Positions 1,501 through 63,729 of a DNA stretch of 64,000 nucleotides are shown here, one piece after another (position 1 is the first letter of the stretch; each line of letters starts with the position of its first letter). The stretch is taken from assembly GCF_004010195.1 (NCBI RefSeq), contig NC_057713.1, positions 60,801,482 through 60,865,481 of the forward strand. Direction: 5' to 3'. Position numbers and translations under genes: made by a program. Under the pieces are notes generated by a model. The model saw nothing but the letters and a program-made list of their open reading frames with translations, made no database searches and had not been told where the DNA came from. The stretch comes from Chiloscyllium plagiosum (taxonomy: Eukaryota).

Positions 1501-4500
1501 CTTAAAAAAAAGACAATAAACATATATAATTCTCCTTTTCATGCATCACATACTTTCACATCACTTCAATATTCAAGCACATAATAGTGTCCTGAGACTT
1601 TGCTGTTTTTCCTTCAATTCACTGTACAGGTATTCATTACACAGCCAAATCTGAAAACCCTTCCAACACCCAGCAAAGTTAGCAAAGTTAGAATCACTTT
1701 ACAAACAACTAAATTGTGCTTCCTATTTCAAATGGAGATATTCCCAGAGATACTTTGACTTAGTTGGTGAACATTCATATTCACAAAGGGCAGAAGATCA
1801 CATCTTTACTTCGAAATTCATCAAGTGACACTTTATGCAGTATCATTTATTAATGTTCAAGTTATATTTACACTCTAAATGGCTTCGTTACATAATGGAG
1901 TGCTTCAGAGGAACTTCCTACACAGTAAAAATTAAAAGTGTTTTAAAAAAAAGACTATAAAAACAAAGCCGATTATTTTCATTCCCTAAGTATGCTGCCA
2001 AACTACACATATCCTGTTATACTTAACTGAGTGCATATGCACAGGTTCATTCAGAAACTGGAAGACAAAAGTCCCTTACCTTGATGTCAAGAGCATATGG
2101 TCCAACTGTCTCTTTGATCTTTTCAACAAATGCAGTAATTAACTTCAAAACGTCTTCTCTACAATCCCGAAACTGGAAGTCAAATGAGATTTTACAAATA
2201 TGTTACATAATACATTTTTAAACTAAAAACTGCTAACAACACATTTGGTAGTTGCAAAGTCAGCCTTATTCAGTGATAGAATACAGATTTAAGAATCTGA
2301 AAATTGTAAATTCAAATCTCATCCAGAGACTTGAGCACAAAACCTAGGCTTACACTTCAATGAAGTAGGAGTCAATTTCTAGAATCTGTACCAAAAACAA
2401 ATGTTGAGAGATCACAGAGGGACAGGCAGCATCCAAGGAGAGAAAGCAAGCTAACATTCTGAGTCTATAGGTGACTTTTCGTCTGACTCTGAGACCCAGA
2501 TAATATTCAGAGGACCTGGGTTTGAATCCCACCTTAGCAGATGGTGGAATGTGAATTCAATAAATATTTGGAATTAAGAGTCTAATGATGACCGTGAATC
2601 CATAGTCAATATTCAGAAACACCAATGTGGTTCATGGTTTGGTCTGGCCGGCATGTGACTCCAAAGTCACAGCAACGTGGTTGACTCTTAACTGTCCAAT
2701 GGGCAATAAATGCTGGCCTAGCCAGCGACGCCCTCATCTCGTTAATGAATATTTTTTACAAAGCTGCTTCTCCTGGTGTCCTAGTTAGTATTAATCTCTA
2801 AAATAGATTACCTGGTCAGTATCATACTGCTGTTTGTAGGAGGTTGCCACATCTCCTAAACTGCAATTAACAACACAGGCTATCAGGCTCTTTCGCAAAT
2901 TCAGCAGTTATGAAAGGCGTTATATGAATGCACAGCTTTCCTTGATGGAAAACTTACCTCTTCATTGCTTAGTGATTTTCGAAGGAAAATCAGTAACCCT
3001 TCATCCTTTGAGAACACCAATGAACTGTGTAGGGCTGTACATAAACAAAAGAAATGTGAGAATACACTATCAAAAGAAACACAAATTATTCATCACACAA
3101 AAATATGTGCGTTCATTTGAAAAATGACTAGTGTTATTAGTATTAGAGTATTTACCATAACTTTGAAATATTCAACTTACTCAATACTGTAACAGCAAAT
3201 TAGTGTTTAAGGAAAATTTTAATTCATCAGTACACTTACAGACAGCTTGGTCAACAAATTGTAGTTACAAACTGCAGATACATTTCATATTAATATTGTA
3301 TTTTGTGGTAATATTGGAGAGTCACTTTCCTATAGTCACCATCGGAGAACTCCTAGCTACTTATCCATGTTTCTTTGATCTAGTATTATGATACTGGCTG
3401 ATGGTATTTCAGATCAAGTCAGATTCCAGAATGAAACCTGGCTTGTTCAATCATAATTATGTTTTTTGTTTAATTGGTTCCTGGTGGTAATTCACAAACA
3501 TATTCACACAAAGATGATTTTTTAAATAACAGAATGGAGTTTATTACAAAAGGAATAAAAAGATAATCCAAATATCTACATATAGAAGCATGTTAGAATG
3601 ATCTTAAATTATGCAGCAAAACAATGTTTCAGCCTGCTTCCCAACACTATCCATTATAGAAATTCGAGTTACAGTACAGGTTCTGGTATAACGCAAGTTG
3701 CATCATTGCGAATTGGCTATAATGCAATTGACAAATTGTGGACGCTGTTTGGATAACATGAACTTTCTGCTGACTGGGTATAGCAATTTTCTATAGTGCG
3801 AGGTTGCACAGGAACGCAACTGTCATGTTTTAGTAGAACAACCTGTATTCTCTAAACTCCTCACAATTACTTTGCCATGGACTGTGGGTACAACTCAATG
3901 AATCCTTTTCAAATCTGTTGCAATGAACTTTTTCACTAATTTGTCAGCCTAAACAATTCTAATAACCTGCAGATTTCTAACTAAACTCTCCTGGTATGGA
4001 AGTAAACTTTCAACTGAGATGACGTATTCCCTGAACTGACCTGAACTACTTCTGGGAGGAAAAACTAAACTTACTTCTAAACTCAACAATGACGTCCTCC
4101 AAATGAAATTAAAAGCTTTCTCACTCCTCGATTCTTCTGAATTGGAAACAAAATAAATGACCACACATGTTTACCCTGCCAGAGACAAAAGGTATAAGTG
4201 TCCTTCCATCAACACTACAGGGGTCTGCAGTCATTTGCTTTCTGACAAAATATTAAATTTATTCGCTGTTCCAGAAGCTCTCTGACCTAGCCTTTTATCA
4301 ACAAAATCTTTCATAGAAGTAACCAACATCCAACTGCCTCTGCTTTTAAATCTAAATTCCAAAAATGTTCTTGCGCTCTTCAACACTCCAACCATTGCCA
4401 GATTAGCAAACCGCGATCAGGACAAACCTCTTAGAGTCATAGAGATGTACAGCATGGAAACAGACCCTTCAGTCCAACCATCCATGCCGACCAGATATCC

Positions 4501-7500
4501 CAACCCAATCTAGTCCCACCTGCCAGCACCCGGCCCATATCCCTCTAAACCCTTCCTATTCATTTACCCATCCAAATGCCTCTTAAATGTTGCAACTGTA
4601 CCAGCCTCCACCACATCCTCTGGCAGCTCATTCCATACACGTACCACCCTCTGTGTGAAAAAGTTGCCCCTTCGGTCTCTTTTATATCTTTCCCCTCTCA
4701 CCCTAAACCTATGCCATCTAGTTCTGGACTCCCTGACCTCAGGGAAAAGACTTTGTCTACTTACCCTAACCGTGCCCCTCATAATTTTGTAAAGCTCTAT
4801 AAGGTCACCCCCCCAGCCTCCAACGCTCCAGGGAAACAGTCCCAGACTGTTCAGCCTCTCCCTATAGCTCCACTCCTCCAACCCTGGCAACATCCTTGTA
4901 AATCTTTTCTAAACCCTTTCAAGTTTCACATCTCTTGAAGCCAATTTAAATCAAAACTACCAATGGAAAAGAACTAAAACAAGATTGTCTGCTGTCAATT
5001 CCAAGCCTCACTGCTCTTCTATCCATAAACAAAACATCAAATGTCTCACCCTGTTTCTTCACCTCAACAAGAAATGCATAGATACGTTTATAAAAAAACG
5101 GCTGTTGATAACATTTCAAAGAGTGAATGAAATGAGTTTACCAAATTCAGTACAGCGGCAAAAGCCAGATGCTGAAAAGTCACACCAAAACTGAATCATT
5201 AGCCTCTGCCATATAATGAAATAACATGGATTAGAATCCAGGTTCCCAGACTCACATTTGGACTGCAGACAGTGAGTGGAACATGGTAGCACTTTCCCAG
5301 CAGAAAGGGGAAATCTCATTGTTTTATTTTATGCCACTCTCACATTTCCCAATGGCTTCTTGCAGAGCAAGACAGATATGAAACCGGAGAAAAACTGCAG
5401 TGGATCCTTTAATGGTGTTTTAGAAGATATTATACTGGCCCTGGCCATAGTAAAGATGATTAGATACATGACAAAAGGAAGAGTTGGGAAAATAGCAGAG
5501 AAGTACAAGAGAAAAAAAAGTTGACAGTGTGGCCCGCCAGGCACGACAGAAACAATTGCTGGCTTTACCACCACCAAATGAGAGAGATACTGTGAAGGAT
5601 GGGGTCATCTCAGTGGATAATTTTTGAGATTATAGAGACCAAAGAGATTTACTTTGTTGTCACACTATTATATTGGATACAAGGCTGGCTAATAGGACTA
5701 CAGGACAAAGAAGCAGAAGTAGGCCATTCAGCCCATTGAGTCTGTTCAATGAGATTATAGGTGTGTAAATCTTCAAAATTCTCCTACCATTTCCCTGTAA
5801 ACCTTGATTCCATTGTGGTTAGATTTTCAATCCTGGCCTCAAATATACTTAATGATCCAACCTTTACACGCCTTCTTTTTTAATTCGTTGAGGGCATCGC
5901 TGGCCAGGCAGCATTTATTGCCCATCCCTAATTGCCCAGAGGACAGTTAAGAACCAATCACATTGCTATGGGACTGGAGTCACATGTAAACCAGACCAAG
6001 TAAGGATGGCAGTTTCCTTCTCTAAAGAACATTAGTGAACAGGATGGGTTTTCAAAGTTTGGGTGAAGATTTGTAGCTCGGGTGCTCGTTGTTGTGGTTC
6101 TGTTTGCCGAGCTGGAAATTTTTGTTGCAAACGTTTCGTCCCCTGTCTAGGTGACATCCTCAGTGCTTGGGAGCCTCCTGTGAAGCGCTTCTGTGGTGTT
6201 TCCTCCGGCATTTATAGTGGCCTGTCCCTGCCGCTTCCGGTTGTCAGTTTCAGCTGTCCGCTGTAGTGGCCGGTATATTGGGTCCAGGTCGATGTGTTTG
6301 TTGATGGAGTTTGTGGACAGGCCACTATAAATGAAAGGTATAAGTGGTCATGGTGTTTTGTTTGATGTGTTTTCTGAGTCAGCTTGGAGTTTGCCAACAG
6401 GACATAAAATTGGCTTGATGATAGGAGACAGAGGGCCATTATGGAGAACTGTTTTTTGAACTGGAGCCTTGTGACCAGTGATGTTCCATAGGGATTGGTA
6501 CTGGGTCCACTTTTGGTTGCCATTTATATGTGATTTGGATGAGAATATAGAAAGCACAGTAAATTTACAAATGACACTAAAACTTTCCCCTCCTGGTTAC
6601 AGCCCCGCCCTTGTTTTACCAACGTGACAGGGAAGAAGGCTTATCTAAGATTACAAAGAGATCTTAATCATTGGGATAATGGGCAAAGGAGTGGCAGATG
6701 GAGTTCAATTTGGATAAATGTGAGGTATTACATTTTTGTAAAACAAGGGCAGGGCTTATATAATTAGCGGTAGATCCCTGGTAATGTTGTTGTCGAACAG
6801 AGAGACCTAAAGGTTCAGATACATAGTTCTTTGAAAGTTGCATCACAGGTAAACAGAGCGATTAAGAAGGCATTTAGCACACATGCCTTCATTGTTATAT
6901 CTTTTGAGTATAGGAGTTGGGATGTCATGTTGAGATTGTACAGGACACTGGTGAAGCCACTTCTACTGTGTACAGTTCGGTTTGCCCTGCCATATTATTA
7001 ACTTGGAGACTTTTTCCCACTAGAGCATAAGAGATTGAGGGGAGACTTCAGAGGTTTGTAAGGTGAATAGAAAGGGTCTTTTCCATAGGATGAGAGAGTT
7101 CTAGATTTTAGGCGGCATATTTTTAAGGTGGGATGAGAATGTTTTAAAAAAGGACAAGGAGCAACTTTTTTTTTGACAAGACAGTAGTTCACGTGTGAAA
7201 TGAACTACCAGAGGAAGTGGTAAATGCAGGTACAGTTACAACATTTAAACGACATTTGGATGACTACACAAATAGGAAAGGTTTGGAGGGATATGGGCCA
7301 AACGCAGGCAAGTAGGACTAATTTAGTTTGGGAACATGGCTCACGTAGACTAGTTAAACTAAAGGGTCTGTTTCTATGCTGTATGACCATCTATGAACTA
7401 AAGAGCAACCCCTTATTCTGAGATTATGGTCTCTCGTCTTAGATGCTCTAAGAAGAGGAAACAATCTCTTAACAATCAACCCTGTCAAACATAGCACCCC

Positions 7501-10500
7501 CTCCTCTGAAACTTGCATCCATAATTCGATGTCCATAACCAATCACTGCAATGATAGAAAGGAGAACAGCATAGAAGATTTTGACTGAGTAGCAGACATG
7601 CAGGAACTGAGAAAAGGAAGGAACCAATGATCAAACATAGATTATTTCAGAGACGATAATGTACAAGGAGGAAGGGGGAAAAAGATACTGCTGGAAAATG
7701 CTGCCTGCATTAAAGCAGATAAGAATTGAACAAGTGAGTCTGGTTGTGGAATGGGTGAGAATGGAGCTGTTAACAAAACCAAATAATGTACAAAGTTAGA
7801 GTTAACTATGGTGACAAACTACAAGGGTGATTGGTGTCACAGATCAACATAATCTCAGTTTTGAGCACTGTGAAAGCCTGAATGAAGGAATTCAAACAGA
7901 GAACTCCAGGGGTGACAACATAAACATAGGAAGTAGCAGGAGACTACTCAGTCCTCAGGATGATTCAATAAGATGACCTATTTGTGTATTGAATTCCATA
8001 GTCCCATCTAGTCTTAGATTCTTGTTACACAGGGGAATCAATCACTGCCTTTATTCAACTACTTCATTTCTACTGCGTTCTGAGTCTGCATTTCAAAGTC
8101 ACAACTTCACCCATAAAAGTTCTTTGCATCTCTTTGCAAAAGGATGTCCTCTAATTTTAAAATACTCTCTCCAATTCTGGATTCATCGACAAAAGTAAAT
8201 ATCTTTATTCACACCCACCTTGTCAAGACCATTCAGGATTTTAAGATAGTCACTTCTCACTCTTCCAAATTCTAGTGGAAACGAGCCCAGACTGTCCAAC
8301 CTACTGTTCACTGATCCCAAATATCAATATTGAAAACTACAAATGCACCATTGTAAACTTCCTGTGAACAGTTTCCAATGTATTTCATCCTTCTTTAAAC
8401 AAGACTAAGTTAAACAAAAGCGAAAAATCATCTCAATGTCCTGTATAGTGTTACATCTTCACATTTGCTCTCTAGTCCTCACATAATAAAGAATAACATC
8501 CATTTAGCCGTCTCAATTATATGCTGCACTCGCATAATAGCTTTTTGCAATTGATCTACTTAAAGACATGAATCCCCCTGCATCTCTGATTTCTGCCATC
8601 ATTCTCCATCTAAATAATAGTTTTTTTCATTCTTGCTGCTAAAAAGTGAACTTGACATTTTCCCACATCACATGCCAATCTGTCATAATTTTACCCACTC
8701 ACTCAACTATATATATATATCCTCCTGCATTCTAATCTTCTTTACGACATATTTTCAACTGTCTGTTTAAGTAATTTACGATAGAACAATCAAGAGCAGA
8801 CTCTTTGAAGAGATAAGTGATTAGACTTTAAAAAGGAGGGGAATTGTGTCCGTATCAAAGGAGCTACTTACAGTAGTTCTGACAATTATGAGGAGGTAGG
8901 GTCATTCAGTGGTGACAATTGGGTGACGACTGGATCAAGTGACAAAGAATTGTGTCTTTGAGATAAACATAAGATGTGGAAATGCTATTTAGCGATATGG
9001 ACAGGGATTTCAGCCTGATATGAAAATGCAAACAGACTGGCAGAGGGAGGTACGTTGTAATGCCCATCATTACTTGGCGAGCCTATTTGCAAGATTCAGC
9101 CATTTTGCCAGAGGCCAGTTCAGGTTGAAGGAAAAGAAAAGGAGGCAGAAATATTCAGTCAGTCTCAGGACTCTGACAGCGACCAAAGCACATTAGCTAC
9201 CTGGAAGTAGCCTCCCAGTGGCAGGCCAGGGGGCACTATTCCTGTGAGACTTTGAGGGTAGCCCTCTATTGCCCACCTGGCCATAGCTACAGCAACATAT
9301 CACCTTATAGAAGGATACTTTATATACTCCAAACTTATGACCCAGTAGCTACAACCTTTTATTTTTTCTCTCAAAGTTGATTTAGCTATGCCAAGAGGTA
9401 CTCCATGTATCCGTCAAGTGGACTACAGGACCTTGTGTGCTGATGGGCCTGCAATAGATAATTCTACATGTACTTTGGTCACAACTGAGCTAATATAGCC
9501 AATTCACATCAAGTTACTGCTTCCATCAGTGCATGGACAATGACCCACAAAAAACCTTGCCTCAAAATTCTGGACTGGAGATAAAACACTGAAGGATCAA
9601 GAGTGTGAAAAAGGAAGGCTTAGTGGCTGAGCCAGCTGCGAGGATAATTTTAATCTTGAAATTAAGTCTGTAACCTCCTCCTATAACATATTGAACATCA
9701 GAACAAGGGAGTTAAATAGGATGATTTGGGAGATGGTAGTTTAGTCATTTAGTCTGGGATTTGTTTCATCCTCATTGACAAAGAATGATCCCTATGGAAA
9801 GGGAGATGTGGTATTTTGAAAGTCAAAACACTGCCAATGACTAGCTATACCTCAGTACAGTCAAGCCTGTGTCTTTTTAGATCCCCAGGAAATGTAAACT
9901 ACGCTTTGGAACAAAGCTATCAATAGACTGTGAAAATCATGGTGCAAGTGAAGTCAGCAGAATGAGAATTAACAAGTAGACTTAGTAGACAATGACAGCA
10001 GGGGCACAATAACAATTCCCATACAAAGTACCTGGAGGAGTAAGGTAGCTTGGGGTAGAAAGGTGGTTGGACAAAGTGTTGGCCAGGAAGCATTGTCAAT
10101 AATTGGAAAACAGAAGGACCAGATTTTTTTTTAATTATCCAATGAATTAACAAAGAACAAGAGTTGGACACAATAAGCTGGTTCTGGTTTTATAAATTCT
10201 TTATTTCAAAATTGAAATGTAAATTTCAACTTCATATTTTCCTGCCAGATTTCTCATTCGACAACCTCCCCTTAACCTGAAGGTTTGCTCAGTTCCACTA
10301 TTCAGCCTTTAAACCTGCATGTCACCCATTTCCAGACCTCTCAAATATTATCCTGAGCATAACATCAATGGGAAAATGAATGTAGTCTGGGGATAAGGGG
10401 CCTTTGATTTTCAACCTCCACTTTGTGGAAGTGCTGCCTTCAAGTTAGTACCCTCTCCATCAGTAAATCAAGACTAGCCAACATGAAAACTTTACACATC

Positions 10501-12801
10501 GCAACAGACTACACAAACCAACAATTAGATTTTTATACTGAAATGTTCTTTCAGAAGGCACGTCTAAAATTATTTCACAGAAGGGACTTACATTCTCCCC
10601 TTAACTGCGTAGGTTTCTTCCAGTGCTCTAGTTTCCTCAAATAGTCCAAAGATTTGGAGCTTAGGTGGATTAGCCATGCTAAGTTACCCGAGACGTGCAG
10701 GCTAGGGGAATTAGCCATGGGAAATGCAGGGTTATAGGGATAATGTAGAAATTAAAAATCATGACACCAGGTTATAGTCTAACAGGTTTATTTGGAAGCA
10801 TGAGCTTTTGGAGGGCTGGTGCTCCAAAAGCGAATGGTTTCAACTAAGCCTGTTGGACTATAACCTGGTTTTGTGATTTTTAACTTTATCCACCCTAGTC
10901 CAACACCGTCTCCTCCACATCATGGATAAGGTAGAGACATGGATCTGGGTGGAATGCTCTGTGAAGGGTCGGTGTGGACTCAATGGGCTAAATGGCCTGC
11001 TTGCACACTGTCAGGATTCTATAAAATAACATACTATCACTTAATCTTTGACAAGGAAGAATAACTTTTACTATTCCTGTGTAGCAACTCTGCCTGGGTT
11101 AACACATGATAGAAACTAATTCAATACGACATGATCAACTTCTGGCAATACCAACCTCCTAAACATATATCAGACGATTGATGAAAAACTACCTTCGCAA
11201 CTTTGACAACTATAATCTACTCAATTCAGACCGGTGTAATTCATGTATTTAGCACCAAGTTCTCAGTTCACTGGTATTTTGATAATTCAATAGACAACTT
11301 AAAATATTAAAATAATTGCTGGCTTTTTGTTACCTCAATGCATTACAATTCCAAAATCTGACAAAAATGGTAAAACAACGGTCAATATCCATAAAGTTAC
11401 TTTGAAGCTGACTCAGAAAACACATCAAACAAAACACCATAACCACTTATACCTTTCATAACATATTGACAAAGAGACTTTGGAAGCCAGTTATCTGACG
11501 AGTTATAAACTTGTTTTGACCCTTTTTGTTTCACTCCTACAACTGAGACAAATGCAAATTTTAAAAACTAACTTTTTCCACTTTTCTGCCATAAACAGAA
11601 ATAATTTTAGGATAATAAAATGAAATAAATCTAAATACACCCATGCGCAATTTGAAAGCCTGAATCTGGTGATGAAACAACCATTGCCTTTAATTGTACT
11701 GCCAACTGTGGCTAATTTTCTGGGGAGTGGCAATCTCACACACATTGTTATTGCACTGCTCCTTGTTTACGCAGCGAAAGAGCTCTGCATTTCTGACAGC
11801 AGTTTCCGATCAGAGCTCAGAAACGTGGAACCGTTCTGCCACTCTGGTTGTACAGAACAGTCCAAGGAAGCCATCCATGTCCACATTTTAAGTGCATCCA
11901 GCAGCCATATTCTGAAAGTTCTATGTCAAACATCACAGGCAACCTCTTTGACAGTAAGCGACAGTGTTTACAGTAGGACAGGGTGTAAGCTCCTACTGGA
12001 GAATGGGAGGGATTGCAAGAGGTATGGGGACATGCATTTGGGGGGATTTTCGAGGACAGTATGGAGTAAGCGGAATAGCGAGACGTTAAATAGGTTTTAA
12101 TATCGTAACTTTTGTTCAACAGCTATTAACGTAATTAAATGGGAACCCTCTGATTAAAACTTATATTTGCGAAAGTTTCCAAGTGGACGTGAATTACTTA
12201 GCAGAATCTTTTTTCCGGGAAATTGGTTGAATCTCCTGCAGGGAATTTCGCAGGGTCTCAACAAGCAATTCTCACCTATGCTTCAGCAACGAGAATAATC
12301 TGGCCTTGGGAAAAATCTAAGTCTACATCTCCGACAACTAATTGAGAGTGTAAACACCTATTTTACAAATATACAACAGCTAAGTCTGTACTTCGCCAGT
12401 GCGCTGCCAACTCGGTTTATTGCCGGAAGACCATAAACGGTATCCCGGTGATGAAGGAACAAATTGGAGGTGGCGCTGGGGGAACATACAAAGAACCAGC
12501 GGTTTTTAACTCCTCCTTGTCCTGGTCAGTTGCTCTAGGGATGCGAGCTCCTCCCAAATGGGGGGGGGGAGAAAAACTTTTGCAAACCTTAAGCGCCTCA
12601 ACCAGCGGCCTGTCTCTACCCACCCAGCCGGCTTTCATGAGTGTTGTGCAGAAGGTCATGGGTCAGGTTGGCGACTATACTGTGTGACTCCATTGCTGCA
12701 CTCCTGCTGTCTTGGGCTGACAGCAGCTGCTCGAGTTGTTGCAGCCGCCGCTCCACCTCGAGCCCCACGCCAGCTCCATGTCTCCGCATTCCAGCAGCCA
12801 T
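1426..12801 (-). CDS. PRKDC: DNA-dependent protein kinase catalytic subunit, 5' part (exons 1-4; gene continues beyond the left edge)
   Basis: Spliced exons 12801-12624, 3034-2958, 2172-2080 and 1500-1426 with GT/AG ends and matching phases give MAAGMRRHGAGVGLEVERRLQQLEQLLSAQD...ALHSSLVFSKDEGLLIFLRKSLSNEE/FRDCREDVLKLITAFVEKIKETVGPYALDIK/DVCLVMYTKEKAAKCKVAALDLLLV. This matches the vertebrate DNA-PKcs N-terminus; head-to-head with MCM4 as in other vertebrates. Confidence 0.95.
2080..2172 (-). CDS. PRKDC: PRKDC exon 3 (93 nt)
   Basis: ccag|TTT CGG GAT...ATC AAG|gtaagg; FRDCREDVLKLITAFVEKIKETVGPYALDIK. Confidence 0.93.
2490..2740 (+). mobile_element. SacSINE/DeuSINE-like SINE (related copies at about 5886-6052, 19215-19350, 51240-51530 and 51820-52160 on the minus strand)
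   Basis: B-box gggtttgaatccc; shared core gtgactcc..cacagcaacgtggttgactcttaactg..gggcaataaatgctggcc found in several copies. Confidence 0.6.
2958..3034 (-). CDS. PRKDC: PRKDC exon 2 (77 nt)
   Basis: tacag|CC CTA CAC AGT...GAA GAG|gtaagt; LHSSLVFSKDEGLLIFLRKSLSNEE. Confidence 0.93.
3677..3845. mobile_element. Tigger/pogo-like MITE
   Basis: TA|caggtt...aacctg|TA with imperfect TIRs of about 20 bp. Confidence 0.6.
4433..4932 (-). mobile_element. CR1 LINE 3' fragment
   Basis: LPGLEEWSYRERLNSLGLF...FFTQRVVRVWNELP; same 3' end as the 24855 copy. Confidence 0.9.
6052..6333 (-). mobile_element. Penelope-like 3' fragment (second family)
   Basis: Minus strand encodes STNSINKHIDLDPIYRPLQR (PLE endonuclease C-terminus-like), followed by a hammerhead motif. 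19-bp inversion at 6209-6227 / 6315-6333. Confidence 0.75.
6128..6166 (-). ncRNA. Hammerhead ribozyme motif of a second Penelope family
   Basis: CTGAGGA-t-GTCaCCT-agac-AGGgGAC-GAAAC-GTT on the minus strand (sense to PRKDC). Confidence 0.6.
6386..7392 (+). mobile_element. CR1 LINE, degenerate
   Basis: Collinear with the 24855-26086 copy. Confidence 0.85.
10590..11022 (+). mobile_element. V-SINE split by a hairpin element
   Basis: V-domain 10590-10749 resumes at 10924 (gggtcggtgtggactcaatgggc). Confidence 0.7.
10750..10923. mobile_element. Hairpin non-autonomous element (probably Penelope-derived) inserted in a V-SINE
   Basis: Inverted arms of about 60 bp (ttaaaaatca..ccaggttatagtctaacagg / cctgttggactataacctgg..tgatttttaa), ~36-nt tail, TSD ggataa(t/g)gtaga at 10738-10749 and 10924-10935. 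Confidence 0.75.
12624..12801 (-). CDS. PRKDC: PRKDC exon 1 (coding part, 178 nt, phase 1 end)
   Basis: ATG at 12801 (MAAG...), donor G|gtgggt; lies in CpG island. Confidence 0.85.
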
Positions 12802-13165
12802 TGTCCCAGTGCGAACCCTGCCGGCACAGCGTTCTAAACCCGCCCTCTCCACCGCCCCGCTGGGGTGGGGGAGTGGTTGGAGACATTGAACATTCATCAA
12901 CAATTCTCAAAATGATTCCATGCAGTTCACACACAATAAACATTTAGTGTTATGCCTGTATATGTGAGGTAAAAACGCTTCCTGCGATACGATTTCTAAA
13001 CTTGCATTCTCAGCTTTTTTTTCCTCTTCCTTATTCTTTCTTCCACCCCCATAATTATTTTGGCGTAGATCCTTCCGAATCGGGCGAAGCGCGCGGATTG
13101 GTGGTCAGCTGACAGCCTTGGCGGGAAAAGTCGTGTGCAGAGTGAAGAGGGAGAGCTTTCAGGTG
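12802..13165. promoter_or_regulatory. Bidirectional PRKDC/MCM4 CpG-island promoter with E2F site, CCAAT box and GC boxes
   Basis: CpG-rich stretch of about 12380-13700. Consensus E2F site TTGGCGGGAAA at 13118-13128, inverted CCAAT (ATTGG) at 13097-13101, GC boxes CCGCCC near 12840 and 12852. Candidate MCM4 non-coding exon 1 donor AG|gtggga at 13162/13163. Confidence 0.8.
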
Positions 13166-14550
13166 GGATTCAGTGTATGAGCAAATAACTCACGTTCTAA
13201 ACTGTTCATAATATTATGAGGCTTTGTTGTGTTTGCCGTGTTGTCTTTGTGCTCGACCGTGAAAATAAATTGAAATTTTAAAATTTCAGCCTGTCGGATA
13301 AGATACGTGCTCAGTGAACCTTATATAGTCTCCTCTCAGGCCAGCCGGTTAGTATTGCATCCGCATGGACGGATTTAACTTAATTTTTTTTAAAACTCCA
13401 ATTTCGCATCGGATGCTTTATTTCAAGCGACATTTTCGATGCAAGAGTAAAGGACAGTATCGCAAGTAGCAAAAACGATATTACTTAAATAATGTTTTAA
13501 AGGTACCTAGAGTTTATTTGAAGTCGTGTTTTTGATCGATTTATTGCGTCCAGAAGATCTTAGTTTCCTTGTTCGCTCCGACCAAACTCTTGAAAGCGAA
13601 AACAGATTGTTTCCATGATCACCAGCGAGCGTTACTTTAGCTATCATCAAACTATCCAGGTATGCAACTAATTATTTTACTAAACAAGCCGAGAAAATAC
13701 GAACTGAAATACCTTATTCAGCCCGTCAAACCCGTTTATACTTTTCAAAATGACCATCACTGATGCTGTCAACTTCATACTTTTCTTCTTTCCCTGTGCC
13801 CCCGATACTTTTAACCTCTAGGAAATCTATTTCTTAAAACTTATTAAGTGACTTGGTCTCCATTGTCTATGGTAGAGCTCTGAATAAAGAAATTTCTCCT
13901 CATATCAGTGCAAAATTCCCCCACATACTACCTGAAACTGACTTTTTGTTCAGAATACCCTGATCTGGGGAAATGTCATTCTTGCATCTGGTCTATTTAG
14001 CCCCATGTGAAATTTGTACCCCTCTCATTTCTTCTGAACTCTAATGAATATGGACCCACCTGACCCCCATACTCTCCTCATACAACATACCTGTCCTGGT
14101 AGGAAATCAAACTGGTGAACCTTAACTGTATTCCCCCAGGCAATTATATTCTTAGGCAAAGAGACTAAAATTGCACAGCTAATCCAACTGGTCTCACTGA
14201 GGCCTTGTACAGCTACAGTTACACTTCCTTGCTCCTGGATGCTCATCATCTTGCAGTAAAACCAACATCATATTTGCCTTTGTAACTGTTTGCTTTACCT
14301 GAATCACCAATGAATTATGATACCAAGATCCCCTTTTATGTTAGCTCTTCCTCACGTATCATTTAAGTAATATTTTCAATTGTTTTTCTGACAAAAGTGG
14401 ACAACTTCACGCTCATCCATGTAATACCACATCTTCCATGCATTTGCCCATTCACTCAACTTGTCTAAATTGCCCTGAAGGCTCTATTCATCGACCTCAG
14501 CACTTGCAATCTCACCTAGTTTTACGTTGTCAGTAAACTAGGCTATATTA

Positions 14551-15126
14551 GTCATAGAGATGTACAGCATGGAAACAGACCGTTCAGTCCAACTTGTCCA
14601 TGCCGACCAGATCTCCTAACTTAATCCAGTCCAATTTGCCAGCAACTTGGCCCATATCCTGCTAAACTTTCCCTACTCATCTTCCCATCCAGGTGACTTT
14701 TAAATGTTGTAATTGTACCAGCCTCCTCCACTTCCTCTGGCAGCTCATTCCCTACACACACCAGTCTTTGCGTGACAAAGTTGCCCCTTTGGTCCTTAAA
14801 CCTTTCCCCCTCATCCTAAACTTATGCCCGAGTTCTGGGCTCCCCCAACCTAGGGAAAAGACCTTCTTATTTTACGCTATCCATACCCCTCATGATTTTA
14901 TAAATCTCTAAAAGGTCATTCCTCAGCCTCTGACGTTTCAGGGAAAACAGCCTCAGACCTTTCAGCCTCTCCCTATAGCTCAAACCCTTCAACCCTGGAA
15001 ACATCACTGTAAATTTTTTCTGAACCCTTTCAAGTTTCACAACATTCTTCTTATACGAGGGAGACTAGAATTGCGCACAATATTCCAAAGGTGGCTTAAC
15101 CAACGTCCTGTATAGTCACAACATGA
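14551..15126 (-). mobile_element. CR1 LINE 3' fragment nested in an older CR1 (about 13700-15540)
   Basis: Begins gtcatagagatgtacagcatggaaacagac, the reverse complement of the CR1 3' end. Confidence 0.85.
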
Positions 15127-16308
15127 TTCTTTCACCCAAATTGTTGATATATGTCTTGCATAGTTAAGGCCCAACATTGATAACTGTAGTATCTTCTTTT
15201 GTCACTGCCTTTCACTCCAAAACCAACCCATTTATTCCTACTGTTTCCTGCATGCTAACCAACTCTAATTCCACTTCAGTATATTACCACAAACCTCATG
15301 TACTTTGATTACATACATCAGCCTTTTATATAGGAATATTGAAATGCACTGCATCCAATTTCTGGATCATTATTTGTGTTGTCTTCTGTGCAAACACAAT
15401 TAAAATAGTTGTTCAATTGATCTGTCATTTCCTTGTTTTTTTTACCCAATTCTGGTGTCATTGACTTAGCTGTCACTGCATTCCACTGAAAATCTTTCTC
15501 CCCCAATAATATCCGCAATTTGTTTGACAGAAGTAGTTCCAAGGTACTCCAACACAAACTGCATGGTGTTTTTTAGTCTGACTGGTGATCTCACATTGAT
15601 TTTCTGTTTCTGCACTCTTTACACAAGGTGTGACTATCTCACTGTATGTGTTATCACTATATCTCAGCTTTTCAGATACCCAAGGTGTTGCTCTCGATCC
15701 AAACTGCAAATTTCCACTAGCTGCAGCTGGATACACATCCTACACATGGTCACCCTGCACATTGGAAGTGTCCCTGATGTTACACATGGCACAGGAGGAA
15801 TATCCCACCTTATCATGACTTGTCCTTAGATTGCTGTCTTTATGCTCGTTTTCTCTGGGTCAAAGAATATTAAATACATGCTCTGGACCTTCCCTTATTC
15901 CTTCTAAACACTCATAATCTAAAGACCAATTTTTACTTTTAAAAATACACAGTAGAAATGCTCACTTGCTCTGCAGCATAAGCAATAAGTAAAATGCTAG
16001 AGTGTTGGCAAGCTATTTTTGGCAAGATTAAATCTTAAATCACTCTCCCTTTCACAAATTCACAGTCTTAGCACTCTTGTGCCGGAGCACTTAATCTCTT
16101 TATTTCTATAGTCGAAGACGAGGGGCAATAATAGAATAAGGGGTTACTCAATTAGAGTACAGAGGAGGATTTTCTTCTTCCAGCAGGTAGTGAATCTGGA
16201 ATTTTGTACTGAAGAGTGCTGTAGAGGTTCAATGAGCTGAATGACTGACCTCTATGCCTCCACTTTATGGTGTTGTTCTTCCACTTCACTGACCATAAAT
16301 AACCTTGC

Positions 16309-16507
16309 TGTAAATGTGTTTCTGGAAAAGCGCAGCAGGTCAGGCAGCATCCAAGGAGCAGGAGAATCGACGTTTCGGGCATGAGCCCTTCTTCAGGAAT
16401 GCCCGAAACGTTGATTCTCCTGCTCCTTGGATGCTGCCTGACCTCCTGTGCTTTTCTAGCAACATATTTTCAGCTCTGATCTCCAGCATCTGCAGTCCTC
16501 ACTTTCT
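16309..16507. mobile_element. Minimal hairpin Penelope-derived element with hammerhead core
   Basis: Inverted arms of about 70 bp (16311-16382 and 16399-16470), 35-nt tail, TSD ccataaataaccttgc at 16293-16308 and 16508-16523. Confidence 0.85.
16368..16398 (-). ncRNA. Minimal hammerhead ribozyme motif
   Basis: CTGAAGA-a-GGGC-tcat-GCCC-GAAAC-GTC on the minus strand. Confidence 0.7.
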
Positions 16508-17264
16508 CCATAAATAACCTTGCACAAGTCGATGAATTTTTGTTTAAGGAATCTCCTGGGAAAAGCCCTCATGTTCCCTTTTTACTAGCTTGAGCTTAGA
16601 TTATTATCATAGTTTAATTTAAATGAGTATTTACGGTGAACCTTTTCTATGTTGTCAACTAGCTTGCATACTGGTGTTAGATCACTGTTCAGTTGCTACA
16701 CGTCCATTCTCAAGCTTCCATATTTCTCAACTCTTCATAATTTCAGCTGTGGAAATGCGTTTAGTGGAGCTACTTTCCAATGTTTCAATGTCCTTGTTTC
16801 TCAAGCAGCTGAAGAGAATGACCACATTAGCTTTTTAACATTACATTCACAACTTCAGATAATGTATACGCTGTACTGAGAGATTTGTACTTCACTTCTG
16901 TACGGCTTCAAGTTATTTAAGTAGCCTACAAATCTCTGTAAGCATAACTGTTCCTCTTTAATAAAATCTGAGGGATGTTAAAAAAAAATCAATAGGCCTG
17001 CTGTTATAGCTTGGTAGTCTTGGAGGACAGAATGGTGAGTATGTTCAAATAACAGCAAGTAACAATGTTTTTCATTTTTCTTCTCTTGGAAGAATTGAGA
17101 AATGGAATGTCTCATGGATGACAAATTCATTATGTTAACATGGAATTTGTGTTAAGAGTGTTCATAAGATGGCATAAGTATTTTGATCATTTCTGTCATA
17201 AACATGTTCATGTTGAATTCAGCAGTAAATGTTTGTGTATTTTTTTCTGTTCTTAGTGATAAAG

Positions 17265-29516
<12,252 letters not shown>

Positions 29517-29832
29517 AAGTCTGTTGAAAGAAATTTATCAGACAATGCTTACTTATCTTTACTGAAGCAATATACCAATCAGACGTATTTCACATCATTT
29601 TGTTTAAATATCTGATCCCATTCTAAGCTGTTTTTCTCTTTTGTAATGCCAAGCTTCATGTCTTTAATAGTGTGTTCAAAACTAAAGCAATCAGCTAATA
29701 CACTGCCAGGGATGTAAATATCAGGTTACAATTTTACACTTTTCATGCATTGTGCCATTTTAGAGACTCAAAAAATGAAATAATTCAATGACAATGTTAA
29801 TGAAGTAGTGAAAATATTTGATTTGTACTAAC

Positions 29833-30044
29833 AATAAAACTTTGCTCACTTTTTTTCCTGATACGTTTGACATGATGGAAGCTACCCACTTCATGACTGG
29901 AAGATTGATACAGATCTACTAGGGAACTTAGATTTATACTGATGCTGGATTTTAATTTGTGCCAAATAAATAAGATGAAATATTCACAATCTTAAATCAT
30001 TATTATTGTGCACTGTAAATTTGATGTTCTTTCCACCTAATAAA
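29833..30044 (+). terminator. Candidate MCM4 polyadenylation signals
   Basis: AATAAA at 29833, 29965 and 30039 downstream of the stop codon. Confidence 0.55.
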
Positions 30045-30283: not shown

Positions 30284-30403
30284 GGAGACAGTGAGGACTG
30301 CAGATCAAAGTCGACGAGTGTGGTGCTGAAAAAGCACAGCCAGTCAGGCAGCATCCAAGGAGCAGGAGAGTCAATGTTTCAAGCGTAAGCTCTTCATCAG
30401 GAA
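30284..30403 (-). mobile_element. Penelope-derived 3' fragment with hammerhead core
   Basis: Minus strand CTGATGAAGAGCTTACGCTTGAAAC, then ctcctgctccttggatgctgcctg and a tail ending ctgcagtcctcactgtctcc. Confidence 0.75.
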
Positions 30404-32437
30404 CCTAATTTGTTGAAACACAACTTTTTTTTGGAATCACAAGCTTTCTAAGCACTGCTCCTTTATCAAATGAAATGACATGCATGCACTATCCTCTGCC
30501 TGAAAGAGTTGCTCCTCAGGTGCCTTTTAAATCTATCATCTTAAACATATGCCCTGTAGTTTTGGACTCCCCTACCATGGGAACAAGAACTTATTCAGCT
30601 TCTCGTGCACTTCATGATGATGGATTTCTGAAGAGCTACTGGAGACTCATTTCTTAGAGTGGGATTTTTCTCTTAGAACTTACAAGAAGTTAATAACTGG
30701 AAAATAAGAATAGATAACAAAAACAGTCCCAGTCCAAAAGCTTCTAAAACAAGACTGCCTCTTGCCCAAAACTCAGGCCGAATCAGTTAATTCTTTGATT
30801 TCTCTGTGGCTGGCTAGTCAGCTTTAGTTCTCTTGATTGACCAATTCAACATCCACCTAGCTGCCAGTCCCTGAACTTGGCAACAGCTTGGTGCCAAATC
30901 GTCTGCAGTTTTCTTGGAGCAGTAATTAACTTGCATTATCTTTCCAAGCAGTTCCAAAAGCAAGCTTTGGTCTTTTGTTCTCTGCTTGTTTTTAAAAGCA
31001 TTGTTCAAAGTTCAATTTTCAACTGCAACTCGCAGTTACAAACCATCTTGTTTTTTGACCACTGGTTTTAAACCTCCCCACAAATGGCAATATATTCTCC
31101 AATCTATATTAAATCCTTTGTAATTTTATTAAAGACCTCTAGCAGGTCACCCCTCAGCTTTCTGTTTTCCAGAGAATGGAGACCCAGACTATTCTGTCTT
31201 TCCTGGTAGATACAACTCAGTTTTGCTATTGGAAAACTGATATTCACCTTTTCTAGTAACTATATTCTTGTGTAAATGGTGATAGAATTTTAGATACTAC
31301 TGGAAATTTGCTCTAATTAATGATAATTGTATGCAAGTTGTTTCTAAACTTGTCCCATTGCCACTGCTTTTGCTTTGGACCGTGAATCTTTGTCATTTGA
31401 TCTCTCCAGCCCTCCACCTTGTCTCAAATCATTTTGCCTCTTTTATTGCATTTTTTGCCCATATCCATGACTTCAGTTTTGTCCTTTACACCACACATCA
31501 GTCAAAAGTGACCTTGATCTCAAAGACAGTCACTCTCATCTCACTTCACCTCACTTCTGGAATTCATTCCTTTTGTCCATGTATAAATCAAGACTGTAAT
31601 AAGCTGAGTCACCCAAAATGGGAGCCAGCGAGCAGGTTGTTGCTCAGCAAATTCTATGATACCACTGTTGAGGATCAAGAATAGAGATAGGGCAGTAATT
31701 GGCAAAGTTAACATGTCCTGCTTTTTGTGTACAGGATGTACCTGAGCAATTTTCCACATTATGGGTAGATCCAGTGTTGTAGCTATACTGGAATAGCTTG
31801 TCATAAGTTCTCGAGTACAAATTTTTAATACTATTGCTAGAGTGTTGTTAAGCCCAAATCAGTTTGTTCCTCAGTGCTACCAATTTTTTCTTCACTTCAT
31901 GTGGAGTGAATCAAATTGGCTGAAGCCTAATGTCTGTGATACTAGGAAGCACTGGAAGAGGCTGACATGGATCATCCACTTCTGGCTGAAGATTGTTGTG
32001 AATACCTCAGCCTTGTCTTTTGCCTGATATATTGCACTCTCCTATTATTGTGAAGGGGGATGTTTGTGGAGCCTCCTTCTCCAATGAGTTAATGTTCTAC
32101 CATCTTTGACAACTATATGTGGCAGGACTAAGAGCTTAGATCTGATCTGGTGTTGTGGAACCAATTAACTTTATCTATCACTTGCTATTTATTCTGTTTG
32201 ATGTAAAAGTAGTCTTCATAAGGCTTCACCAGTTGACACCTCTTTTCAAGTATGCCTAGTGATCTAGCATACGTTCTTCATTGAACTAGGATTGATTCCT
32301 TCATTTGAATGATTGAGTGGGGGCATTTGACAAGTTGCAGATTATGTTGGAGAATGACTTTGTTGCTGCTGATGGCCCTCCACATATAGATACATTCAAA
32401 GTCTGTTCCATTTAGAATGGTTATACTAAGTTTTTTT

Positions 32438-32726
32438 TAGATTAGATTAGATTACTTTACAGTGTGGAAACAGGCCCTTCGGCCCAACAAGTCCACACCG
32501 ACCCGCTGAAGCGCAAACCACCCATACCCCTACATTTACCCCTTACCTAACACTACGGACAATTTAGCATGGCCAATTCACCTGACCTGCACGTCTTTGG
32601 ACTGTGGGAGGAAACCCACGCAGACACGGGAAGAATGTGCAAACTCCACACAGTCAGTCGCCTGAGGTGGGAATTGAACCCGGGTCTCTGGTGCTGTGAG
32701 GCAGCAGTGCTAACCACTGTGCCACC
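32438..32726 (-). mobile_element. tRNA-derived V-SINE (HE1-like), near full length
   Basis: Minus strand ggtggcacagtggttagcactgctgcctcacagc..gggttcaattcc (A/B boxes), V-domain tgtgtggagtttgcacattct..gcgtgggtttcc, (tctaa)n tail. Confidence 0.85.
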
Positions 32727-33558: not shown

Positions 33559-55088
<21,530 letters not shown>

Positions 55089-55227
55089 TTTTAATGGATC
55101 CAGACCCACCTCTCTCTCTCAAAAACTTCACTTCCTATTCATGTCTTGTCAATTCTCTGCAATACTAAATGCCAACAAAAAGATTTCAATCTTGAAATGT
55201 ATGTCCACAATAATGTTCTGAACCACA

Positions 55228-56199
55228 AATAAATTCAGTAGTGGTGCAGAGTAACTTATTTTCTCTTATCAAGGCAATGATGATATCGATGATATACAAG
55301 CCATTGGAATCTCGGCTTCTATGGGAGGGAGGGGTGAAGATTGGGAGTGAAATCAAGACATTTATTGCCTGATCATAGCAAATATATATGTTAAACAGAT
55401 TATTGGTAATAAAGGCAGTAGTTGGTGTATATAATGGCATGCTCTGGAACCTTCCGATAAAAAAAGAGCTGTATTGAAAACATTTGAGGTTGTGTACGTT
55501 GTGCAAACTACACTCATGATAAGGGTTGTTGAAGTTTTTGCTCATCATTTTGCTGCATTGTGGTGCAGATTAATTGTAATGTCAGTGTGTTGAGAATGTT
55601 TTAATATTTGTATTTATGAAAATGACTTTCTGTTAAGCAGCTCTTGTGTATCAAGTTATATTACGTTTGTTTACAGCCTGATTCTACCAAAACATGCATT
55701 TGAATTTGCGAGAAAAGAATATTGGTGTATAGTTAGAACTTCCTAAAATTAAAGCTAGTCTTGAAGATGTGAATAAGGTGCAGTGAGATGCTTTTCATTT
55801 AAGCCTTTGAATTGGGTGATACTGTTTGACCAAATGTATTTTTAAAAAAAGTAGTGGTAAAATCATTCAAGTGGTTACTGGTTGCGAACTTATTGATTTC
55901 GCACGTGTAAGCGAAAACATTCATCTTTGCCTTTCAAACTTATCTTACTTCTGGAGGGCAAAGTGACCTGGCTAGTTAATATGCTAGGCTCAGATTTTCC
56001 CTTTAGAATCTTATGGGAAATGTTAATTCTCTCAGACTAAAAGCTGCTAATGATCGTGTCAGAAAAATAATCAGGTAGAGTATACTATCTGAAGTTTACT
56101 TTCTCTTATGAGTTGTCTCATCAATTTGCTGTATTTGAGAAGACTGTTTCCCATTCAAGTTTGTGAGAAAACTTAAGGTGGGTGTATTCATTTAATAAA
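55228..56199 (+). terminator. Candidate UBE2V2 polyadenylation signals
   Basis: AATAAA at 55228, 55408 and 56194 in the AT-rich 3' UTR. Confidence 0.45.
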
Positions 56200-57134
56200 C
56201 AAAATATAAAATCCTGCTCATCTTTCCATTTTTTTTAACCAACCTTGGTGATTTTGCCAGAATAGTGTATTCTTTCCATGAAAAAGCAATGTACTTCAGG
56301 CCTCCACTTTCTTTCTTTTTCTGCTCTCTCTAGCTCATCTCAGAGTTACAATATATATACACTGATGCATGAACAGCGGTTTCTAAAACCAACTAATATT
56401 ACAGTGTACTCAGCTTGAATCAGTATATCTAGGTATGATCATTAGCCAAATAAGATTCCCTCCATACCCAAAAATGATTTACAACAATGAATTACCTTGA
56501 GCTACAGCCATCTTCATGAGAGAAATTGGGGATGGACAATAAGTGCTGGCTTTGCTAGAAATGTGTACTTACTACAATTGAAGACTTTTTCAAAAACTCT
56601 TAACTGATATCCAAAGCTGAAGCACAGAATCCACAACCAACATCAGGATCAATAATGCATTTAAAATTCTTGAACAACTTCTTTGCACAGTGTCGTATAG
56701 TACTTATGGAACATGAACAGGCCAATGCATTCATTCATGTGTGGTTTTATTTTTTATGTGTAGATCTTCTGTCACCCTTTTAAACCCCATCAACATATCC
56801 TTTTATCCCTTCTCTCCCTACATATCTCCCCAGGTTCTCTATTGCTTGCATATTCTAAGCATTCTCTTCATAAGGAATTTGTCCAAAATTCCTACTAGTT
56901 TTATGACCTACTTATAACCCATCTTATAGCCTTGCTGCAAGTTGCAATATCAATTTTGTCTACTGTATAACATTTTCCTAATCATAATGACCCATTTGGT
57001 GACAGAGCTGTTTCCTGGTCAGTTGTTCCCATTGGGTACAACCTCAGTTTTGCTATCAGAAATGTTTTTTATATATTCTCCTGTGTTTATTCTTTTAATA
57101 ATATGAAGACCAGAACTGTTCAACAGCGTAGAGC

Positions 57135-58300
57135 CATACAACATAGAAACAGATCATTTGGTCCAACTTGTCCATGCCAGCCAAGGTTCCCCCAAGCTAC
57201 ACTAGTTTCATTTGCTTGTGATTGGCCCATATCCCTCTAAACCTTTCCACTCGTACTTATCCAAATGTCTTTTAAATGTTGTAACTATACCTGCATGCAC
57301 TACTACCTGTGCAGTTCTTTCCACAAACATACCACTGTTTTTAAAAACAAAAGTTACCCCTCATGTCCTTTTTAAAGTTCTTCTCTAACCTTAAACAATT
57401 TGCCTCCTAGGGCAATGACCTTTGCTATTCACCTTATCCACGCACCTCATCCCTCAGCCTCTGACATGCCAATGAAAAAGAGACCCAGCCTATCTTTATA
57501 ACTCAAACCTTCCATTTCTGACAGTATCCTGGTAAATCTTTTCTGAATCCTCTCCAATTTAATATCCTTCCTAGAGCAAGATGACCAGAACTGTACATTC
57601 AGAACTCCAGAAGAGGACTCGCCAATTTACTGTATAATCTCAACATACCATCCCAGTTCCTATACTCAGTCTGAGCCATGGAGGCATGTGTGCTAAATGC
57701 CTCTATAACCACTGCCTATCTGATGCAAATTTCAAAGAATTATGCACCTGAACCATTAGGTCTCCCTGTTCTTCAATGCTATCCAGTGTCTTACCATTAA
57801 TTGTATAGGTTCTGCCTTTGTTTGCTTTACCAAAATGCAATATCTTACATTTATCCAAATTCTACTCAATCTGATACTCCTCAGTCCATTGATCCAATTA
57901 GTCAAGATCTCTTTGTAATCGTAGCTAACCAACCTCACTGTTCACTATACTGCCAATTTTGATATCATCCACAAACCTCCTAACTGTCTCCTAAACAATT
58001 TGGATGAGAATTTATATAAGTGACAAAAGTGGACCCAGTCCTGATCCCTGTGAAAGACTGCTTGTCACAGGCCTCCAGTCTGAAAAAGAAAACCCTCCGC
58101 CACCACCATTCTGTATCTCTTACCATCAAGTCGATTTTTTTTTTAATCCAATTGGCAAGCTCTCCTTGAATCTGTGATCTAACATAAAGTCTATGATGCA
58201 GAACCTTGTCAAAGACTTTACTAAATTCTTCAAAAGCAATATTTACTGTTCTGCCCTCCATCTTTTTTTTGTTACCTCAAAAAAAATCGAGTTTGTGAGA
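57135..58300 (-). mobile_element. CR1 LINE, degenerate
   Basis: FSKVFDKVLH...QIQGELANWI; CR1 3' end at the left. Confidence 0.85.
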
Positions 58301-60825: not shown

Positions 60826-61330
60826 GAAGAATCAAACCGTACAGTACAACCTTTGGCCCATCATGTCTGTGCCACCAAATGCTACGACCTACACTAGCCC
60901 CACTTTCTGCAATAGCCCATAGCCTTGGATGGTAAGACACTTCAAGTGTTCATTCAAGTAATTTTTAAAGATGTAGAGGTTGCCTACCTTAACAAACCTG
61001 TATGTTCCTGACCCCCACCTCCATCGCTCTATGGATGAAAATGTTTTTTTTCTGAAATCCCATCTGAACACTCTGCCCTTCTCCTTAAAATTGCGTTATC
61101 GACCCTTCAACTAAGGGTGCCCCCTCCCCTCCCCAATCTTCCCATATCCAAAGAAAACAACCCAAACTTATCCAGCTTTTCTTCGTAGTGGAAATACTCC
61201 ATTCCAGGAAACATCCTGGTGAATCTCCTTTGCATCCCTTCCAGTCCAATCACATCTTTCCTGTAGTGTGGTAACCAGAACTTCATGCAGTACTCCAGCT
61301 GTAGTCTAATCAAAGTTCAAAACCCCCAAT
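60826..61330 (-). mobile_element. CR1 LINE 3' fragment
   Basis: LEYCMKFWLPHYRKDVIGLEGMQRRFTRMFPG. Confidence 0.8.
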
Positions 61331-61350
61331 ATGACTGTTGCAGGCTTTAT

Positions 61351-61382
61351 TCCTGATGAAGGGCTTTTGCCCGAAACGTCGA
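61351..61382 (+). ncRNA. Minimal hammerhead ribozyme motif in a Penelope-derived 3' fragment (about 61348-61479)
   Basis: CTGATGA-a-GGGC-tttt-GCCC-GAAAC-GTC. Confidence 0.7.
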
Positions 61383-61669
61383 TTTCGAAGCTCCTTGGAT
61401 GCTGCCTGAACTGCTGTGCTCTTCCAGCACCACTGATCAAGAATCTGGTTTCCAGCATCTGCAGTCATTGTTTTTACCTGGTATCTAGCTCTGCTCAGTA
61501 ATGGTGGTGAAGTCGAGGAACTTGACTAAGTCCTTTGACTTCAAGTGGACAACTGATGGCATCACCATCCTGACTCTGCATTATTTTCCCTGTAGTGATA
61601 TCTGGAGGAAATGATGGCAGCACTCAATCATCCATAGCCAAACCAATGAGTATTGTTATGAATGTGACA

Positions 61670-63670: not shown

Positions 63671-63729
63671 ATATGTTGGGCAAGTTATCCAGGTGTAAGT
63701 TGGTTGTAGCTAGGCTTGGAGGAAAAGGA

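Follow-up and report, generated by a model that had tools for sequence, protein, structure and literature searches.

The DNA analysed here (the window) is a stretch of 64,000 nucleotides of Chiloscyllium plagiosum contig NC_057713.1 (positions 60,801,482 to 60,865,481) that holds exons of three host genes, namely a DNA-PKcs-like gene on the (-) strand (1360-12900, with a Pfam DNA-PKcs_N match at 1360-3089), an MCM gene on the (+) strand (21665-27721), and a ubiquitin-conjugating-like gene on the (+) strand (53750-55085). This exon order is what we take to be that of the vertebrate PRKDC-MCM4-UBE2V2 locus, and the names PRKDC, MCM4, and UBE2V2 are likewise our assumption. In the same stretch we found 12 insertions bearing hammerhead ribozyme motifs, which total 4527 bases or 7% of the window, a 496-base assembly gap included. 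Probably, these insertions are end-pieces of several Penelope-like families, each made up of a pseudo-long terminal repeat (pLTR), a minimal type I hammerhead, and a tail of 35-37 nt, which were likely dead on arrival and have since decayed neutrally. As a kind of system this is already known; new beyond the published picture are only the sharp 5' boundary of the copies and their density.

The hammerhead-like inserts are real and well above chance. The motifs were searched with a strict minimal-hammerhead descriptor (core, stem II, palindromic 15.2/16.2, and stem I of at least 2 bp), and the chance level was taken from 40 dinucleotide shuffles of the window. Without any change, four motifs were found (6163, 16396, 48107, and 61353, named by the position of C3) against 0 in 40 shuffles; allowing up to one change yields seven (adding 30400, 39804, and 42207; shuffle mean 0.075, maximum 1), and up to two changes yields nine (adding 30469 and an unrelated match at 3180; shuffle mean 1.1, maximum 5). 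Damage keeps the descriptor from recognizing the motifs at 2485, 38302, 47032, and 50034, which were assigned via homology; for 2485 and 38302, this homology reaches within-window expect values (E) of only ~1e-5 to 0.02. Each of the 12 coordinates listed by an original prediction, which had been made from the letters of the window, was found to hold a hammerhead-like or homologous segment, with C3 at 2485, 6163, 16396, 30400, 30469, 42207, and 48107 on the (-) strand and at 38302, 39804, 47032, 50034, and 61353 on the (+) strand. The prediction of about a dozen inserts was near the right number, although the 12 cores represent 11 insertions, because 48107 and 50034 belong to one and the same insertion (47984-50119), which has them in its two arms and carries one target-site duplication (TSD), and a further insertion at 10750-10923 had been missed. 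With a CUGANGA / GAAA / UH core, stem II, stem I, and palindromic 15.2-16.2, the motifs are of the minimal type I hammerhead kind; four of the 12 cores are intact and eight are damaged. A relaxed scoring descriptor was dropped, as shuffles matched it as often as the window did. No hammerhead family was among the five matches of the Rfam covariance models at E up to 5, and the microRNA matches of Rfam at 16337-16452 are a reflection of the hairpin located there.

One layout shared by all inserts had been expected; at least four were found, namely plain stubs, small hairpins, longer pieces with coding sequence, and long inverted forms. Among the stubs, that of type A (30284-30404, (-) strand, long 3' end) begins 3-4 nt upstream of its C3 (30400) and has intact core letters with G16.2 changed, and that of type D (30420-30472, (-) strand) has an AGCU palindrome and changes at G8 and at C3 itself (position 30469). 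Type B is represented by a 99-bp stub at 39798-39896 ((+) strand, short end), which begins 6 nt upstream of C3 (39804), has U16.1 changed, and lies in a perfect 13-bp TSD (39785-39797 / 39897-39909), and by a stub at 61342-61479 ((+) strand, long end) with an intact hammerhead (C3 61353). The former opens with G, at a position 2 nt ahead of the common 5' boundary where T stands in the other type B copy; this G could be a copied cap, in a single case. The remaining stub (2376-2490, (-) strand, C3 2485), in a DNA-PKcs-like intron, is a heavily decayed type C module recognized by its homology to 38302 and to type A and B copies (E 2e-5), with a register set by eye.

The small hairpins comprise one of each of types D, A, and C. 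The type D hairpin (10750-10923, (+) strand) consists of an inverted arm (10750-10813), an arm (10822-10886), and a tail of ~37 nt within a 12-bp TSD with one mismatch (10738-10749 / 10924-10935), and it lacks the CUGANGA half because its fold-back falls in stem II; its likeness to 30469 is weak, with 0.3% and 8% of random stretches scoring equally high. It is nested inside a repeat (10590-11022) resembling a short interspersed element (SINE). In the type A hairpin (16309-16507, (-) strand), an inverted arm with a 36-nt tail is joined to an arm with an intact hammerhead (C3 16396) and a short end, all within a perfect 16-bp TSD (16293-16308 / 16508-16523). The type C hairpin (38205-38424, (+) strand) is decayed, with three core changes (C3 38302), an inverted arm (38205-38290), a tail, and a TSD candidate that is no better than chance.

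Two longer pieces, P1 (6050-6330) and P2 (42136-42415), both on the (-) strand and 62% identical, are Poseidon-like and carry endonuclease C-terminal codons, a TATA box (6216-6211 and 42257-42252) situated 50-53 nt upstream of C3 (6163 and 42207), and an ATG on A9 with a frame that stays open to the end. The hammerhead of P1 is intact and its 5' junction carries a 19-bp inverted piece (6315-6333); P2 has G12 changed and a perfect 12-bp TSD (42124-42135 / 42416-42427). The long inverted forms are Neptune-like. That of type A' (46445-47155, (+) strand) has an inverted arm inside the endonuclease region, followed by the endonuclease end, the pLTR, a decayed hammerhead (C3 47032), and a long end, with a perfect 10-bp TSD (46435-46444 / 47156-47165). 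At 46445-46625, its inverted arm opens within endonuclease codons directly after the TSD, and an internal deletion is present. The insertion at 47984-50119 ((+) strand) is composed of an inverted arm (47984-48587) with an intact hammerhead (C3 48107) and a long end, a reverse transcriptase (RT)-like piece (48588-48921), the assembly gap (48922-49417), a Cx4Cx2C finger with the GIY-YIG end, the pLTR, a damaged hammerhead (C3 50034), and a short end, in a 14-bp TSD with one mismatch (47970-47983 / 50120-50133).

A plan of arm, inverted arm, ~35-nt tail, and TSD of 10-16 bp, ascribed beforehand to several inserts, is complete in four of the 12 insertions (10750, 16309, 47984, and 46445, where the arm is internally started). 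Taken singly, a TSD of 10-16 bp is present in six (10750, 16309, 39798, 42136, 46445, and 47984), and a TSD search at 2485, 6163, 30400, 30469, 38302, and 61353 gave nothing above chance; an inverted arm is likewise present in six (10750, 16309, 38205, 46445, 47984, and, with its 19 bp, 6050). The module has long and short 3' ends ~36 nt apart, and each of the four two-ended hairpins (10750, 16309, 47984, and the decayed 38205) has one long and one short end. All copies begin upstream of the core and none starts at the cut site, while the fold-back point is different in every hairpin of the window. Tandem units with two or more complete hammerheads were not found in the window, and the only close same-strand pair (30469 and 30400) joins two types with unlike palindromes, both damaged. 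By eye, the type A long end (47984-48000, 47140-47155, and 16490-16507) contains a branch-point-like and a pyrimidine-rich stretch and resembles a 3' splice site.

The affiliation with several Penelope-derived families is borne out by four insertions, Neptune- and Poseidon-like, in which the module is joined to GIY-YIG-type coding sequence. Upstream of the pLTR, frames for a C-terminal GIY-YIG endonuclease, as in endonuclease-bearing Penelope-like elements, are found at 48258-48659, 49420-49800, and 46450-46860; the GIY-YIG piece has a Pfam E of 0.027, below the cut-off, and a score of 0.95 to GIY-YIG clusters of the ESM Atlas. The four insertions with an inverted 5'-truncated copy, a one-sided tail of 30-40 bp, and a TSD likewise have the form of Penelope-like insertions. 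The motifs at 48590-48920 are RT-like; this piece has no Pfam match and the assembly gap follows directly. The endonuclease C-terminal codons of P1 and P2 are what we take them to be from general acquaintance with such enzymes, and the coding piece of P1 has no Pfam match. The Poseidon label of P1 is also our assumption. To it can be added a likeness to the layout of the anole Poseidon element PAc (PMC11167929). A Cx4Cx2C finger lies at 49423-49449, ahead of the GIY-YIG motif. Fingers of the form CX2-5CxxC, placed between RT and endonuclease, are characteristic of Neptune and Nematis (PMC8557442), and the Neptune clade is not fixed by the finger because Nematis has it too.

Stem II differs between the families as had been predicted, and its pairing is kept across them. 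Taking one copy per lineage for five lineages and eight stem positions, with the 3' partners shuffled 50,000 times, we found the stems paired in 36 of 40 cells against 20.8 +/- 2.8 when shuffled, a value reached by 0 of 50,000 shuffles; in the three unambiguous lineages (A, D, and P1), 21 of 24 cells are paired against 12.0 (11 of 50,000). Two to four Watson-Crick pair types occur at seven of the eight stem positions, G10.1-C11.1 being of one type, and the palindrome is ACGU or AGCU. Among copies, decay is the rule. Five type A copies differ from their majority at 8 of 70 core positions, 5 of 40 in stem II, and 30 of 300 in the 60 nt downstream, and a CpG-type transition (C11.1-G12 or C15.2-G16.2) is seen in six of the eight damaged cores. 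Since the core decays at the rate of its flank among copies while pairing holds across lineages, the fold was kept in the source elements and is lost neutrally after insertion; any selection acted in the source elements and not in the copies of the window, which as neutrally decaying copies lend no support to the window-wide system that had been proposed. Moreover, not all conservation need be catalytic, because stem II is also coding in the Poseidon-like copies, and because types A, B, and C show the same degree of conservation in the core and in the 45 nt that follow the motif.

Copies at other loci were followed through RNA reads and DNA contigs placed on 47300-48900 at 80% likeness (run X21: 3317 reads out of 12.96 million examined, the latter being ~2% of the run; run X22: none). 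The RNA depth is ~1390 on the hammerhead bin versus 117 and 66 in the bins just upstream, and the same step is only ~4-fold in DNA contigs, where depth on the module is 10^5-10^6 times that of the flank, which is not a copy number. Loose read ends cluster at the long end (922 reads, 47982-47984) and at 48111, which is 4 nt upstream of C3 (201 reads with varied flanks, agreement 0.40); 136 further loose ends at 48115 look like a single locus. The 48111 boundary recurs in contigs of another organism, organism B (X13; 375 contigs, agreement 0.32), and the 47984 insertion itself predates the split from organism B, because a contig of the latter carries the same left junction. As 91% of the placed reads continue into unlike sequence, and both orientations are seen, the modules travel for the most part as passengers in host transcripts. 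Among the rows listed, RNA ends form no pile at the cut site (48080/48079) or elsewhere; this poly(A) single-cell library is unsuited to cleavage, and the result is not counted as evidence. For a unique stretch of the window, no RNA record carrying it was listed, which is evidence in neither direction. Low-depth joints in contigs of X1 and X13 show, at other loci, the 35-nt tail in tandem duplicate (47982-48016) and the module of 99-134 nt head to tail.

The link between Penelope and hammerheads was already known (PMC4209133), and the copies of the window closely resemble the minimal hammerheads described there from metazoan pLTRs. Common to both are a type I core without helix III, an extra base between A9 and 10.1, G10.1-C11.1, the palindromic 15.2-16.2, the presence in one genome of several families that show compensatory changes, a predominance of single motifs derived from truncated elements, and opposite-strand pairs 100-700 bp apart; the stems, however, are shorter here (stem II 4 bp; stem I 2-3 bp in types A/B). 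No shark is among the species named in the text parts and supplementary file 2 of that source. The published Penelope insertion plan (PMC3846280, PMC8557442) is similar in its inverted 5'-truncated head-to-head copy, its tail at one end, and its junction palindromes, with a tail of 30-40 bp and TSDs of 8-10 bp, whereas most units here measure 100-220 bp and the TSDs 10-16 bp. Miniature hairpins had been suspected to be poorly described; as their plan is published in these two sources, what can be retained is that it occurs here at its shortest. In anole PAc (PMC11167929), as in P1, the open reading frame starts at stem II and the cut site lies a short way on (26 nt in PAc, 28 nt in P1); PAc also has two tail-delimiting ends, copies from uncut RNA, and no RNA-seq ends at the cut site. 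The enzyme steps, demonstrated in vitro with PAc, are only inferred for the present copies, which mostly belong to the Neptune-like kind and have their first ATG 46 nt after C3, and a 5' boundary at the core is absent from the main text of the PAc study. Animal non-LTR retrozymes (10.64898/2026.07.22.740005) are comparable in that they are short, lack coding sequence, carry type I hammerheads, and are related to pLTRs, yet their definition calls for tandem units bearing at least two complete motifs, of which the window has none. An expansion of Penelope-like elements in introns has been reported for the whale shark (10.1101/443036). Among the papers covered by our literature search, which included few from subscription journals, none deals with hammerheads of shark Penelope elements or describes a 5' boundary at the core.

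The mechanism we propose builds on in vitro work in which Penelope protein nicked both strands, extended them, and initiated reverse transcription on uncut RNA from two internal tail-delimiting sites (PMC11167929). A staggered nick of 10-16 nt would give the TSD. One primed strand would leave a plain stub, and two primed strands may produce a long and a short complementary DNA (cDNA) that meet head to head at a few matching bases, in many cases within the ribozyme hairpin; the palindrome would thus be made at insertion. Stubs starting 3-8 nt upstream of C3 may be run-off copies that reach the 5' terminus of an RNA begun at the pLTR promoter, and longer pieces may stem from read-through of tandem copies. 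The ribozyme, working as a dimer or with the aid of protein, would then matter solely in the source element, and the scattered copies would be passengers. The long and short ends ~36 nt apart, one of each per two-ended hairpin, and the lack of any start at the cut site fit two-site priming on uncut RNA. RNA reads from other loci likewise stop matching 4 nt upstream of the core and not at the cut site, which is what run-off copies from a transcription start would show.

Several observations weigh against this account. The step in RNA depth may partly reflect subfamilies with different upstream sequence, and the short end is not clear in the reads, where the rows near 48018-48022 look like subfamily divergence. 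The inverted arm of 46445, starting inside the coding region, is not predicted by the two-site model. The pairing test is support and not proof, because it ignores relatedness among its five lineages and uses two registers chosen by eye. The clade labels are based on pieces that are short and contain frameshifts, with a sub-threshold Pfam GIY-YIG and an RT-like piece lacking a Pfam match, and type D (10750 and 30469) is not joined to coding sequence in the window, its putative Penelope origin resting on layout and motif. Finally, the pile of read ends at 48111 could equally be an RT stop at the hairpin. More generally, the copies may share the origin proposed above but owe their 5' boundary to an RT that stalled or jumped after it had passed the ribozyme stems, a version which we consider possible though distinctly the less favored. 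At 10750, 16309, and 38205, the fold-back junctions do lie in the motif or at its border, and the D. virilis element has an internal promoter and an intron that follows 46 nt behind the start (PMC2377424), so that transcript starts need not abut the core. On the other hand, the stems are weak (~-7 kcal/mol for stems I and II), the boundary at 48111 is one base wide in what we take to be an initiator-like context, and it lies ~32 nt downstream of a TTTAT stretch that types A and A' both retain.

The stubs and hairpins might also be non-autonomous elements, SINE- or retrozyme-like, transcribed and remobilized as units by Penelope protein. We regard this as unlikely, even though it would account for the sharp common 5' boundary with fixed 3' ends, for a short module 12-20 times deeper than the upstream sequence in RNA reads, and for low-depth head-to-tail joints of a 125-134-nt unit in DNA contigs; pLTRs are able to act in trans (PMC3846280), and pLTR-derived tandem retrozymes are described in vertebrates, one chondrichthyan included (10.64898/2026.07.22.740005). 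The window, however, has no tandem arrays, its stubs share 90% identity with the pLTR of long copies, carry no private marks, and lack the upstream TATA-like region, each of its hairpins folds back at a different point, and most RNA reads (91%) continue into host sequence. That the copies form a functional host ribozyme network cutting pre-mRNAs is hardly credible. Its appeal lies in four intact cores within 63.5 kb, one of which (6163) is sense-oriented in a DNA-PKcs-like intron, and in the anole ribozyme, which cuts with the element's protein present (PMC11167929). Set against these are the neutral decay of the copies, the burial of the cut site of 16396 in a hairpin of ~-127 kcal/mol, the position of 48107 in a 570-bp inverted repeat, a type A/B stem I of two pairs before a U-U mismatch, the lack of a nearby same-strand, same-family partner for a dimer, and the failure of single motifs to cleave in vitro (PMC4209133). 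Neutral end-pieces of Penelope-like families remain our preferred account, and a host function for the copies is not implied by any of these data.

In terms of density, the four intact motifs per 63.5 kb correspond to 63 per Mb (95% range 17-161) and the 12 insertions to 189 per Mb (98-330). Assuming a genome of 3-4 Gb, this extrapolates to roughly 0.5-6 x 10^5 intact motifs, with the caution that one window is a non-random sample and that motif load differs from ribozyme activity. Published counts, obtained with another descriptor, are ~4,000 for coelacanth and ~9,000 for Xenopus (PMC4209133), which the present density, if typical, would exceed. The large ribozyme load foreseen in the original prediction is hence upheld as a very high density, but not in the sense of active ribozymes, as only four of 12 cores are intact, two of these lie in long inverted repeats, and cleavage in vitro was absent with single minimal motifs and slight with dimers (PMC4209133). 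A bolder conjecture, which we judge very improbable, is that Penelope run-off copies have supplied ~10^5 intact minimal hammerheads, at least 10 times the published vertebrate counts, and that sense intronic copies like 6163 cut pre-mRNAs where germline Penelope protein or paired copies are present; if true, the stubs would be a genome-wide, transposon-switched layer of RNA cutting. If the 5' boundary is a transcription start and the asymmetry of long and short ends holds genome-wide, these copies would be a large natural record for the two-site, two-strand priming model, so far supported by one in vitro study (PMC11167929). If the density is typical, no other lineage reported so far would supply as many minimal hammerhead variants, an asset for covariation work, and introns would hold many long inverted repeats, which are double-stranded RNA substrates.

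A stretch of 55 bp, otherwise unique, occurs twice in opposite orientation (6331-6385 and 11405-11459; 54/55 identical), the former copy, on the (-) strand, being joined to the 5' end of P1. The eight bases at the 3' end of P1 (6050-6057) match 11399-11406, which leads into the other 55-bp copy. The duplicate fits a 5-kb insertion-coupled inversion in the DNA-PKcs-like intron, or a templated patch. When the inversion was checked, the best candidate stood at 1% (60 nt) and 9% (30 nt) of random stretches, in 10 comparisons with one reference start that was set by eye and is probably off; a search around both 55-bp sites did not recover the remainder of the interrupted repeat.

The window also contains numerous fragments of long interspersed elements (4425-4930, 6386-7387, 14550-15126, 22087-22348, 24800-26093, 36286-37244, 57129-58107, and 61798-64000), which we take to be CR1-like, and one of which includes a Pfam RVT_1 match (24803-25444). 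In addition to the SINE-like repeat that hosts the type D hairpin, others are located at 19360-19628, 32431-32725, 37316-37623, and 54589-54859.

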